Below are positions 29,216-31,054 of a stretch of 64,000 bases of DNA, piece after piece. A program made the translations under genes and the position numbers. The notes beneath the pieces were generated by a model that saw nothing but the letters and a program-made list of their open reading frames with translations, did no database searches and was not told the DNA's origin. Position 1 is the stretch's first letter; each line of letters begins with the position of its first letter. Source of the DNA: an uncultured bacterium (GTDB lineage: Bacteria; Chlamydiota; Chlamydiia; Chlamydiales; FEN-1388); contig CAYWZU010000005.1 of the NCBI GenBank assembly GCA_964462925.1, positions 18,171 through 82,170 of the forward strand. The letters are read 5' to 3'.

Positions 29216-31054
29216 ATGAATACTACTGTTACTTTTACTTTTCTTTCTGCTGTACTTTCAAAATATAGTGCTATCGGATTGCCACCTGAAGCCGCACAAG
29301 CCTGCAACGTCAGTCCAGAATCCTACGCTAGACTTTTTCAATCGCTTACAGCTGAGCAGCAGCAAGTGTTTCAGACCCATTTTACCTTTGCAGAAAAACA
29401 TATAATTCAATTGAATGCCTTAGGTCAAGCAAATGAAGAAAGCCCCCTCCACACGCTTGTTGTACGTCATCTCTTAGCCATAGGAAGCTTTCTCAAACAA
29501 ACTACCGAATCTGATTTAATAGCAGATGAAGAGCTCCTAAAGCAGGTAAAACCTGAACATAAACAAAAAGCCTCAGAACAGCTCAGAGTACTATTTTCCT
29601 GCTGCCGCACCCCAGAACATAAACGAACTTTAGAGTTGTTTTGTAAGAATATTCCAGCAAATCTTTTGCCTGAGTATTTGGAGAATCTCAGAGCCATTCT
29701 CCCAAGGGTCGGCAGCACGTTCTGGCCAATCATCGCAGTGACTCTACGCACTGACAGAATAAATGAGATTTCTGTTTTAGCAAAACTTGTAAGAGCCTGT
29801 GCTGTACTATCTCCTGACCAGATCATGGCACTTGCTCAACTTGTATCTGAATTTCAAAAAACACCTGAGGCATTAGAGGCGGCTATCCCAATCCTTTCGC
29901 TATGCGCGACCCATTCCCGAATCCCTGATATCGTACTTATTATTGCAAAGACTCGTGTTGAGGATAGGCTTGAATTTGTAGAAAAAGTTAGGGACTTACT
30001 CAAAACAGCCACAAGCGGAAAGCGAGTATATGAAGTCTTAGCTCACGAGGCATACCCTTTTCTCAAATATGTTGATTTTGCGGAAAAGATGTCGATCGAC
30101 ACGAGAGTTTTAGTACAAGAGGAAAGAGAAGCACCTGCAGAATTCACATTATTTATTGTTAATGAGGCTGAATTATCTTCGAAGCCAGCCAGGACTCTTA
30201 GCAGTTTTCTAGAAGTAGTAAATAAAACAAAATACATCTCGATTGTCTTTCCTGATAAAGTACTTGCAAGAGGTGAGGCTATGAGCACCTTTATTACACT
30301 ACTGTCTCAATCACTTTGCAAAAAATGCTGTAAAGGCACAGTACTTCCCAATGGCCTTGTTTGCCCAGAACAAGCCTCCCTTTCTCCTGAAGAGGAAATC
30401 ACACTCTTTAATGTAGGCAAACTGTTTATGTACTGCCGTACAGACATAGTATTCAAACATGAAATTGGCAAAGTGCTTGATATGAGCGTCTTTATTGCCC
30501 TTAAGCGGCTAGTGCCAAGCCTGCTTAAAAGAGAAATATCGCAAGAGACGTTTGAATTATTTTATCCTATCTATAAAGAAATGCGAGGCTTGAAAGAGGA
30601 TGTAGCCTTGAGTGAGGAAGCAAAGGAAAGCCTCCTAGAATCTATGAAAAAAGCCCTCATCCCCTGTATGGCAATAAGGCGCGCTATGGTAGTACCAAAA
30701 ACGACGACAGCTGAGGATCTAGAAGCATCTATCCAGGGCCAAGTTACAAGAGAGCAAATCTTTGCAAACATAAATTTTGGCAGCGAAATTACAACAGATT
30801 CCAAAAGCAGTATAAAATCATGGATTTTCAAACTTGCAAAAAACCCATCCAAACTGAAGCAGTTTCTCGTGGCTGTTACACAATCTCCTATTCTTACACC
30901 CAAATCGATTCACATTACCATGCAAGGCAAAAAACTTAACGTGTGTCCAAATACCCAAACAGTATTTTTACCAGAAAGAACCTCCATCGATGACGCACTT
31001 AAAGAGCTTGAGCTCGCCTTAGAAAGCGACGTATTGCAGCGAAACAACCCCTGA
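29216..31054 (+). CDS. Hypothetical protein with a C-terminal HECT-like (E3 ubiquitin ligase) domain signature
   Basis: 612 aa with an AAGGA RBS. Roughly aa 335-612 match the HECT N-lobe and C-lobe motifs in order. The candidate catalytic Cys577 (TGT 30944-30946) lies 35 aa from the C-terminus. Confidence 0.5.
   Translation: MNTTVTFTFLSAVLSKYSAIGLPPEAAQACNVSPESYARLFQSLTAEQQQVFQTHFTFAEKHIIQLNALGQANEESPLHTLVVRHLLAIGSFLKQTTESDLIADEELLKQVKPEHKQKASEQLRVLFSCCRTPEHKRTLELFCKNIPANLLPEYLENLRAILPRVGSTFWPIIAVTLRTDRINEISVLAKLVRACAVLSPDQIMALAQLVSEFQKTPEALEAAIPILSLCATHSRIPDIVLIIAKTRVEDRLEFVEKVRDLLKTATSGKRVYEVLAHEAYPFLKYVDFAEKMSIDTRVLVQEEREAPAEFTLFIVNEAELSSKPARTLSSFLEVVNKTKYISIVFPDKVLARGEAMSTFITLLSQSLCKKCCKGTVLPNGLVCPEQASLSPEEEITLFNVGKLFMYCRTDIVFKHEIGKVLDMSVFIALKRLVPSLLKREISQETFELFYPIYKEMRGLKEDVALSEEAKESLLESMKKALIPCMAIRRAMVVPKTTTAEDLEASIQGQVTREQIFANINFGSEITTDSKSSIKSWIFKLAKNPSKLKQFLVAVTQSPILTPKSIHITMQGKKLNVCPNTQTVFLPERTSIDDALKELELALESDVLQRNNP

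Follow-up and report, generated by a model that had tools for sequence, protein, structure and literature searches.

Does a chlamydia-like bacterium carry a protein descended from the HECT ubiquitin ligases of eukaryotes and, if so, is that protein still a ligase? The window that we analysed, a stretch of 64,000 nucleotides of DNA, includes a complete gene on the bacterial chromosome of such an organism, located among genes for ankyrin and TPR proteins. An earlier note on this DNA had read the C-terminal part of the encoded protein as a HECT domain, with Cys577 as its candidate catalytic residue. Its description of the gene proved accurate: the open reading frame at 29216-31054 (+) encodes 612 aa, all quoted peptides are found in the translation, and Cys577 is the TGT codon at 30944-30946, 35 residues from the C-terminus. 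The start of the gene is backed by residues M1-N2, which are invariant in both orthologues (P0002 and P0003). No conserved gene neighbourhood surrounds it, the upstream genes differing across all three loci compared. Rfam detected no family within the window, and a promoter and terminator scan around the gene gave nothing exceeding shuffled expectation. The features of the gene and its product are as follows.

29216..31054, + strand: complete gene, 612 codons plus stop
29216..30070, + strand: N-terminal all-helical domain (aa 1-285), AF2 pLDDT mostly 88-98, all helices
29801..30001, + strand: two ~35-aa helical-hairpin repeats (aa 196-262), with weak likeness to TAL-effector repeats
30071..30130, + strand: disordered, poorly conserved linker (aa 286-305) joining the two domains, pLDDT <50 at aa 285-305
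30131..30739, + strand: HECT-type N-lobe (aa ~306-508), from the family alignment, AF2 model and Foldseek
30248..30292, + strand: FPDKVLARGEAMSTF (aa 345-359), eroded counterpart of F.GE.G.D.GG..REF, from the family alignment (compare the E6AP alignment)
30740..31051, + strand: HECT-type alpha/beta C-lobe (aa ~509-612), from alignments, AF2 model and Foldseek
30944..30946, + strand: Cys577 (TGT), aligned to the 'HTC' His, at -2 from the catalytic column
30950..30952, + strand: Asn579, in the catalytic-cysteine column (hmmalign, HHalign)

When searched directly, the protein does not reveal itself as a HECT homologue. The Pfam HECT profile (PF00632) has zero matches to either the full protein or aa 330-612, even at E<=10, an NCBIfam search of the protein gave no HECT match, and PDB sequence searches with the protein alone and with a 3-sequence profile returned no HECT chain. 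The HECT consensus blocks on which the domain had been recognised fared no better: they share 4, 3, 4, 5 and 6 identities with the protein, values that are equalled or exceeded in 24-100% of cases when the 612-aa protein is shuffled. Together with Ser substitutions, these direct results had pointed to no HECT at all, a reading that was overturned by an exhaustive profile search. Because the Pfam and PDB searches and the shuffle test failed directly, the proposed HECT signature can be recognised only through intermediate relatives; in that form it stands, and as something legible in the protein's own sequence it does not.

With a search profile built from the 612-aa protein plus both orthologues, we retrieved 103 relatives (64 at E<=1e-10), and the description of the protein as an orphan can be set aside. 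Pfam HECT matches occur in 28 of the 90 relatives scanned (18 of 52 plus 10 of 38; best E=1.9e-11), which runs against the statement that sequence-recognisable HECT domains are essentially eukaryotic. The family consensus, F.GE.G.D.GGL.REF ... FHTCFN.L.LP, consists of textbook HECT motifs, and the family profile matches the E6AP HECT structure 1c4z_A at E=3.4e-13 as well as the structures of HUWE1, ITCH, SMURF, NEDD4, WWP and Rsp5. HHalign connects the clade of the 612-aa protein (P0001-4, four members) to 38 independent relatives over aa 304-601 (99.8%, E=5e-30). A PDB search with full-length P0059 (MCE5319077.1, Parachlamydia sp.) was swamped by ankyrin repeats, and one with the P0062 domain alone aligned only two motif regions.

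The family alignment also upholds the order of four blocks that the earlier note had set against HECT motifs. In this alignment ISIVFPDKVLARGEAMSTF falls under F.GE.G.D.GGL.REF, LFNVGKLFMYC...LDMSVFIALK under LG.L.MFCLNA..YP.G..FD..VF.AL, SWIFKLAK..KLKQFLVAVTQSPILTP under W...WI......KL..FLFA.TGS.ALG, and the last block under the FHTCFN.L.LP region. Over its C-terminal ~300 aa the protein is genuinely, if very distantly, related to the eukaryotic-type HECT domain; the domain at aa ~306-604 descends from the HECT ubiquitin-ligase domain of the E6AP/NEDD4 type.

Fold prediction agrees with this assignment. An AF2 model made from 63 sequences (pLDDT 89.5) has the expected bilobed architecture, with an N-lobe and an alpha/beta C-lobe at the extreme C-terminus, and the top 50 Foldseek matches in the PDB are all eukaryotic HECT E3s (probability 1.00, E down to 5.8e-6). 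The best TM among these 50 is 0.48, a modest value that is expected because lobe orientation varies and the N-lobe is shorter. A first model from 3 sequences (pLDDT 55.7), for which Foldseek already placed HECTs at the top, was too poor to trust. In the C-lobe the model has strands at 519-521, 565-571, 575-577 and 582-586 and helices at 527-541, 544-555 and 591-604; a Pfam MC3 match over aa 521-583 (16 bits) is below the cut-off, and the HECT C-lobe accounts for this region. We placed the boundary between the lobes at the 'EDLE.SIQG' helix, the counterpart of ELE.L.CG in eukaryotic HECTs. Landmark spacing is 191 aa in the 612-aa protein, versus ~232 in ITCH and 263 in P0062, a deficit of ~40 aa in the N-lobe relative to the NEDD4 type. 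Across the clade ~40-70 aa are absent, and a 45-70-aa segment found between 'Y..M...E.D' and 'PL.EIAKGM' in canonical relatives is missing. Sequence alignment does not bridge the N-lobe gap region to solved HECTs.

The 612-aa protein, joined to its relatives by direct profile search, thus belongs to a group from chlamydia-like/PVC bacteria that comprises at least 100 sequence clusters with a HECT-homologous domain at the margin of Pfam detection. These relatives come from bacteria (Parachlamydia, Chlamydiales and 'Verrucomicrobia' MAGs, the last including P0024, P0013 and P0033), and the named records seen are called 'hypothetical' or 'ankyrin repeat protein', HECT appearing in none. Many relatives reach 800-1260 aa and carry ankyrin, LRR or Sel1 repeats; across the family the N-termini are of ankyrin, LRR, Sel1 or helical-repeat type, and there are several paralogues per genome. 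Most members keep the HECT hallmarks F.GE.G.D.GG..REF, TGS, FHTCFN.L.LP and an aromatic residue at position -4. This make-up of repeat N-termini and paralogues would fit secreted effectors that ubiquitinate host proteins.

The N-terminal region of the 612-aa protein had been called unassignable, but its ~290 aa form a conserved helical domain common to ~20 relatives, each of which is matched by an HMM of aa 1-290 from its own residue 1. The domain is the common feature of a 'short' subfamily (530-700 aa), and is presumably a target-binding module. Within it, the unit at aa 216-266 recurs as tandem arrays in the relatives P0093, P0030, P0037 and P0068. A match to TAL-effector repeats was dropped as a summed-repeat artefact: its summed E=5e-13 arises from one query segment set against nine repeats at 4-9.5 bits each, and the best i-Evalue per repeat, 4, is not significant. 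The 3-sequence profile has no PDB match at E<=10, TAL repeats included.

If the ancestry of the C-terminal domain is clear, its chemistry is another matter. Eukaryotic-type HECT domains have their catalytic Cys in the loop (A/S/F)HTC(F)N, with the LP motif 7 residues further on, an arrangement that the 612-aa protein does not have. Relatives keep this FHTC(F)N cysteine in 51 of 56 domains, whereas the same column holds Asn579 in the 612-aa protein and Ala, Ile and Ser in P0002-4. Both hmmalign, run with an HMM built without this clade, and HHalign give this result, and neither rewards Cys-Cys matching. In both, Cys577 lies under the His of 'HTC', two residues out of register, and in all 56 domains the stretch from the Cys column to the LP motif is free of indels. 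An alignment by MAFFT, a method that does reward such matches, put Cys577 into the Cys column; hmmalign and HHalign were preferred. Nor is Cys577 conserved: position 577 is Ser in both orthologues and Phe in P0004, and variation in orthologues is an outcome that the earlier note itself had named as speaking against its reading. The assignment of Cys577 as the catalytic residue is therefore not supported, and the catalytic column has been lost in the clade of the 612-aa protein.

Two further hallmarks have gone the same way. The F.GE.G.D.GG..REF motif, kept as GE.G.D.GG in more distant relatives, is represented by FPDKVLARGEAMSTF, in which nothing but one Gly and the Phe residues at the flanks is left. 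The -4 aromatic, required in eukaryotic HECTs for ubiquitin transfer, is also absent; most relatives end in [FY]xxx, and the 612-aa protein ends in ...SDVLQRNNP.

This evidence bears directly on the proposal that the protein is an active HECT-type E3 that loads ubiquitin onto Cys577 as a thioester and passes it to host proteins. Such an enzyme would be in keeping with a true HECT homologue of HECT fold, in which Cys577 ends the strand leading into the catalytic loop at 35 residues from the C-terminus, and with the MAFFT placement. However, the three closest relatives have Ser, Ser and Phe at this position, hmmalign and HHalign set Cys577 2 residues upstream in a family free of indels here, GE.G.D.GG is eroded and the -4 aromatic gone, and the N-lobe is ~40 aa shorter, so that the E2-docking region may be missing. 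We regard an active ligase of this kind as unlikely. Because Cys577 is at the edge of the catalytic loop and just two residues away from the canonical position, some residual thioester chemistry in this one species is nonetheless conceivable.

A related alternative is that the HECT scaffold supports an active transferase with another nucleophile or chemistry, using Cys/Ser577 or the invariant Cys484 (in PCM[AV]IR). The alternation of Cys, Ser and Ser at column 577 in P0001-3 is compatible with a nucleophile and could hint at a relocated one, Cys484 is shared by all members of the clade and is conserved in the short subfamily as a whole, and strong constraint persists on the domain. However, column 577 is Phe in P0004, and a serine oxyester is, to our knowledge, a dead end in HECT chemistry. 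As for Cys484, it looks structural, because it is kept alongside the canonical Cys in some relatives and is Leu, Ile or Val in canonical members. We consider this alternative very improbable.

Losses of this extent might instead mark a decaying relic, the gene of a former HECT effector that has lost its activity and drifts without function. The absence of the catalytic Cys, GE.G.D.GG and the -4 aromatic would be expected of such a gene, as would the lack of a conserved neighbourhood and the very few close homologues known. The pattern of conservation argues otherwise. Four lineages, diverged to 30-46% identity, still have intact, full-length ORFs of 603-655 aa, uninterrupted by frameshifts or stops, and within the protein the HECT-like domain is conserved best: the fraction of invariant positions is 0.36-0.45 there, versus 0.21-0.23 in the N-terminal domain and 0.07 over aa 301-340. 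The invariant stretches include LSPEEE, FYP.Y.EM, LLESMK.A..PCM.IR and TAEDLE..IQG. Thus the HECT-like domain has continued to be conserved, and a functionless relic is in our judgement quite unlikely. Synonymous sites are saturated at the protein identities of 39-46% found here. The clade has a bootstrap of 81/100 and is nested among Cys-bearing members of the short subfamily, suggesting that the Cys-less state is derived. With four members known so far, this 'conserved loss' is drawn from few sequences.

We therefore favour, as the probable explanation, a two-domain protein, from a large family of chlamydia-like (PVC) bacteria that lacks annotation, which works as a 'pseudo-HECT', without the HECT thioester. 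The reasoning behind the non-catalytic reading is that the Cys column, GE.G.D.GG and the -4 aromatic have been lost and yet the HECT domain is the best-conserved part, a combination that makes a non-catalytic HECT mimic appear more likely than an active ligase. In such a protein the N-terminal helical repeats, which the flexible linker joins to the C-terminal HECT-derived domain, would bind a target. The retained bilobed scaffold of that domain could bind a HECT ligand, be it host E2~ubiquitin, ubiquitin or a HECT partner, with sequestration or scaffolding, rather than ligation, as the outcome. Secretion, host targeting and the non-catalytic mode of binding are inferences. Circumstantial hints at a type III effector are the eukaryotic origin of the domain, the expansion of paralogues and, in relatives, the ankyrin and LRR partners; an effector role for the 612-aa protein is plausible. 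More tentatively, the whole might amount to a large undescribed HECT family of eukaryotic (not SopA) type, from which the Cys-less clade was repurposed to disable host E2~ubiquitin or ubiquitin, a scenario that we put forward as possible but doubtful. We know of no non-catalytic HECT-domain protein that could serve as a precedent. If it exists, a pseudo-HECT decoy would represent a way, new for bacteria, of interfering with host ubiquitination, and a functional Cys-less HECT would be a natural pseudo-ligase with which to dissect the roles of the HECT scaffold apart from catalysis.

Described bacterial ubiquitin ligases are mostly convergent (NEL, SidC and the SopA/NleL bHECTs) or mimics of the RING, U-box and F-box types. 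Compared with the eukaryotic HECT E3s (E6AP/UBE3A, the NEDD4 family and HUWE1; PF00632), the 612-aa protein has a homologous bilobed domain, its elements arranged in the same order, at the extreme C-terminus after a variable targeting region. It differs from them in being bacterial, in having no direct Pfam match, and in its Asn in the Cys column, eroded GE.G.D.GG, missing -4 aromatic and N-lobe shorter by ~40 aa. The bHECT ligases SopA, NleL and VsHECT are likewise bacterial and bilobed, follow a Cys-dependent HECT-like logic and are delivered into host cells; their C-lobes are all-helical, in contrast to the alpha/beta C-lobe of eukaryotic HECTs, and in many of them the N-terminus is a beta-helix (PMC10274628). 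In the model of the 612-aa protein, by contrast, the C-lobe is of the eukaryotic alpha/beta type, and chains of SopA and NleL are absent both from the PDB sequence searches and from the top 50 fold matches. The domain is not a structural mimic of the SopA/NleL type. A parallel in its manner of detection is MavJ of Legionella pneumophila, which is of HECT type by HMM-HMM comparison only and is reported to be active in transfected cells (PMC7542358); by that description it differs from the 612-aa protein, which is without the catalytic column.

HECT has been treated as a eukaryotic innovation (PMC4327156), and a survey of ubiquitin-related expansions in Chlamydiae names F-box, BTB and RING/U-box proteins and does not mention HECT (PMC4209131). 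With the family described here, the effector repertoire of amoeba symbionts gains this missing class. In a viral structure library, the sole significant matches are HECT proteins of giant viruses (Pithovirus, Tupanvirus, Megavirus and Mimivirus R349; E=8.9e-6 to 8.5e-3), with low TM-scores of 0.16-0.30. These viruses infect amoebae and so have an amoeba-associated niche in common with the bacterial group from which the 612-aa protein comes, and a chlamydial HECT family fits the amoeba 'melting pot' that the two would share.

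The HECT-like protein is encoded by a 612-aa open reading frame (ORF; window 29216..31054, + strand), whose translation contains all of the peptides quoted in the earlier note, as well as Cys577 (codon TGT at 30944-30946), 35 residues from the C terminus. Neither the full protein nor aa 330-612 is matched by Pfam HECT, even at E<=10. Pfam yields only a sub-threshold match to MC3, NCBIfam gives none, and PDB searches with the protein (phmmer) or with a three-sequence profile return no HECT chain. When the consensus blocks given in the earlier note were scored on the protein and on 300 shuffles of it, they gave 4, 3, 4, 5 and 6 identities, values that 24-100% of the shuffles equal or exceed. 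Therefore, the proposed HECT signature is not directly recognizable at the sequence level. A search of 5.8 billion clustered proteins found just two homologues, the orthologues P0002 (45% identity) and P0003 (39%), the latter encoded in a Chlamydiales MAG whose contig is titled Chlamydiales bacterium. Judged by these direct tests alone, before the wider profile search, the HECT proposal seemed to be refuted.

Scored against 1.84 billion representatives with a cut-off of E<=1e-3, the three-sequence profile recovers 103 proteins, 64 of them at E<=1e-10. Many of these relatives are 800-1260 aa in length, with the match confined to their last ~300 residues, and many N termini are occupied by ankyrin, LRR and Sel1 repeats. 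Their consensus (L...F.GE.G.D.GGL.REF ... NGL.RP ... LG.L.MFCLNA..YPIG..FD ... LQG ... W...WI ... FLFA.TGS.ALG ... FHTCFN.L.LP ... [FY] at -4) reads as an unmistakable set of HECT motifs. Pfam HECT matches 18/52 and 10/38 relatives (best E=1.9e-11), with scores of 20-28 bits, near the gathering threshold of 23.9. Searched against the PDB, a 52-member family profile finds the crystal structure of the E6AP HECT domain at E=3.4e-13, with both hallmark motifs paired in the alignment, followed by HUWE1, ITCH, SMURF1/2, NEDD4, WWP1/2, Rsp5 and AREL1. HHalign joins the window clade alignment to an independent alignment of 38 relatives, with no sequence in common, at 99.8% probability (E=5e-30, aa 304-601).

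A confident AlphaFold2 model built from a 63-sequence alignment (mean pLDDT 89.5, pTM 0.62) divides the protein as follows:
aa 1-285, all-helical domain
aa 285-305, disordered linker
aa 306-609, alpha/beta domain
Foldseek returns 59 PDB matches at E<=1e-3, and the best 50 are all eukaryotic HECT E3s at probability 1.00 each (NEDD4L, HECTD3, NEDD4, UBR5, SMURF1/2, HUWE1, WWP1/2, ITCH, Rsp5, AREL1, Ufd4 and E6AP); SopA and NleL are absent from this top 50. NEDD4L in complex with E2~Ub gives the highest target-normalized TM, 0.48. An earlier three-sequence model was poor (pLDDT 55.7), yet Foldseek ranked 22 HECT structures first. In the viral structure library BFVD, significant matches are confined to HECT proteins from giant viruses that infect amoebae (Pithovirus LCDPAC02, Tupanvirus, Megavirus courdo11 and Mimivirus R349/R349b), and these modeled likenesses would fit an exchange of genes in the amoeba niche. 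Because the family profile match to E6AP, HHalign and the fold agree, the HECT ancestry of the C-terminal domain, which the earlier note had proposed together with the order of its blocks, is upheld, and we regard homology to HECT as highly likely.

The catalytic cysteine fared differently. We built an HMM from 52 domains outside the window clade (P0001-P0004, P0001 being the window protein), so that the clade was unable to shape the model, and then aligned the clade to it. The Cys column (Cys in 51/56 sequences) is occupied by Asn579 in the window protein and by Ala, Ile and Ser in P0002, P0003 and P0004, and Cys577 aligns with the His of 'HTC'. HHalign against the independent alignment gives an identical register (C577/H, P578/T, N579/C). 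In the PDB alignment, the cysteine of the E6AP HTC motif, which we take to be the catalytic Cys820, lies at P-7 counting back from the common 'LPE', corresponding to N579; the stretch from the Cys column to LP is free of indels throughout the family. A full-length MAFFT alignment put C577 in a column of at least 90% Cys, a placement with which the HMM alignment and HHalign disagree and which we ascribe to the strong weight given to Cys-Cys pairs. Since the register is two off and Cys577 is Ser in both P0002 and P0003, its assignment as the catalytic residue does not hold. The model places C577 at the end of strand 575-577 and N579 in the loop ahead of strand 582-586, so C577 would be near the canonical site, not at it; an active ligase that uses this neighboring cysteine is unlikely.

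Other hallmarks are also altered. The GE.G.D.GG motif is degraded (FPDKVLARGEAMSTF), the C terminus (...LQRNNP) lacks the -4 aromatic kept by most relatives, and the clade lacks a 45-70-aa N-lobe segment present in canonical relatives, with 191 aa separating the first motif and the C-lobe Trp versus ~232 in ITCH and 263 in the relative P0062; the absent segment may be the E2-docking subdomain. It is very improbable that the same HECT scaffold, retained in the predicted fold, now carries an alternative nucleophile.

A neighbor-joining tree of 56 domains groups P0001-P0004 together (bootstrap 81/100) as a clade nested within the short subfamily, the 530-700-aa relatives that have the same N-terminal domain. 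All other members of this subfamily (P0005-7, 9-14) retain the Cys, so its loss is secondary. The gene could be a drifting relic, as the lost cysteine might suggest, which we consider quite unlikely: intact 603-655-aa ORFs persist in four lineages at 30-46% identity, the invariant fraction is 0.36-0.45 in the HECT-like domain versus 0.21-0.23 in the N-terminal domain, and long invariant blocks are kept (LSPEEE, FYP.Y.EM, LLESMK.A..PCM.IR, TAEDLE..IQG). From these sequences, the gene is not obviously decaying.

The N-terminal half had been called unassignable, but an HMM of aa 1-290 matches ~20 relatives, starting at their first residue. It includes this feature:
29801-30001 (aa 196-262), two ~35-aa helical hairpins, LSPDQIMALAQLVSEFQKTPEALEAAIPILSLCATHS / RIPDIVLIIAKTRVEDRLEFVEKVRDLL
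The unit at aa 216-266 recurs in tandem arrays of 4-6 copies in four relatives (P0093, P0030, P0037 and P0068), and we interpret it as a module of helical-hairpin repeats that would bind a target. The hairpins resemble TAL-effector repeats (LTPDQVVAIAS...ALETVQRLLPVLCQAHG); that match (E=5e-13) appears spurious, being the sum of nine matches of 4-9.5 bits each, below significance per repeat and gone when a profile is used. Separately, the first ~65 residues of a 232-aa orphan ORF (58260-58955, - strand) weakly resemble the N terminus (hmmsearch E=2e-5; hhalign 35%; common pattern N...LP.EA.E...Y..LF..L..E.Q), which may reflect a common N-terminal leader, a chaperone-binding module or chance.

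None of the names retrieved for family members mentions HECT. P0059 (MCE5319077.1) is annotated as 'ankyrin repeat domain-containing protein [Parachlamydia sp.]'. P0013, P0024 and P0033, which come from two MAGs with several paralogues in each (P0013/P0104/P0107 and P0024/P0033, in JSS12 and JSR37), are annotated as 'hypothetical protein [Verrucomicrobia bacterium]', a taxon label that may have arisen through a problem of binning or taxonomy inside the PVC group. P0006 and P0015 share one 1.25-Mb contig. Paralogues in the same genome differ in their N-terminal modules, and several per genome would amount to an effector-like family expansion. The gene neighborhoods of relatives that we looked at are bacterial and tightly packed (methionine ABC transporter, IS110, peptidase M48, Y2 transposase). 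At the P0003 locus in the Chlamydiales MAG, a 558-aa gene that weakly matches protein kinases (219-1895) immediately precedes the P0003 gene (1895-3769); the common coordinate 1895 suggests that a kinase-like protein and the Cys-less HECT-like protein are encoded in one operon. Before P0002, a fragment at 2-586 (YIHLNPLEAGL...YQWSS...) looks by eye like a REP-associated/Y1-type transposase, a hint of locus mobility.

The window gene, its only HECT-family member, has this setting:
26731-28239, M3-type peptidase, ordinary bacterial neighbor
28315-29070, + strand, 251-aa ORF with a TTG start, 145 bp upstream on the same strand
31183-32771, rsmI and holA, neighbors on the opposite strand
nearby, DctA/GltP-type transporter, ordinary bacterial neighbor
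24953-26356 (- strand) and 48230-49669 (+ strand), ankyrin-repeat proteins amid housekeeping genes
10756-12612 (- strand), large TPR/Sel1 protein amid housekeeping genes
Such repeat proteins are eukaryote-like and typical in intracellular symbionts. The 251-aa ORF has no match in Pfam, NCBIfam or PDB, is absent beside orthologues of the HECT-like gene, and carries a ...FHHSSFFSGK...SGHYRPGE... stretch at its C terminus. Farther away are 2-oxoglutarate dehydrogenase components, PFK, an Opp-type binding protein, MatE pumps, TolC and several orphans. Five large ORFs (449-675 aa) that Pfam leaves unmatched at E<=1e-3 could be additional lineage-specific genes or effector genes:
8079-9428, + strand
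21475-23196, - strand
53494-55521, + strand
61092-62591, + strand
62509-63861, + strand
GC is 38-46% across the window, with no island signature by GC content at the HECT-like gene, and no Rfam family reaches its gathering score in the whole 64 kb (no tRNA, rRNA or riboswitch matches).

Taken together, we lean toward the hypothesis that the window protein belongs to a family of HECT effectors of eukaryotic origin in chlamydiae, no longer performs thioester chemistry and would work as a non-catalytic HECT mimic; for such a protein we infer secretion, a host target and binding partners. In the literature searchable here, no eukaryotic-type HECT family is described in Chlamydiae, and searches on HECT and chlamydiae yield nothing beyond reviews that treat SopA/NleL-type ligases and one paper on a RING ligase of Simkania. 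HECT is absent from the main survey of ubiquitin-related expansions in chlamydiae (PMC4209131). Some members of the family may already be present in databases such as InterPro. Legionella MavJ, whose HECT-type assignment came from HMM-HMM comparison (PMC7542358), is a partial precedent. Bacterial HECT-like ligases of the SopA/NleL type have an all-helical C-lobe (PMC10274628), whereas the C-lobe predicted here (strand, two helices, three strands, helix) is of the eukaryotic alpha/beta type, and the window protein is not one of them. With eukaryotic HECT ligases it shares fold and ancestry, but several of their defining catalytic features proved absent when tested, and we therefore class it as a HECT-domain protein that is divergent and probably inactive, rather than as a functional HECT ligase.
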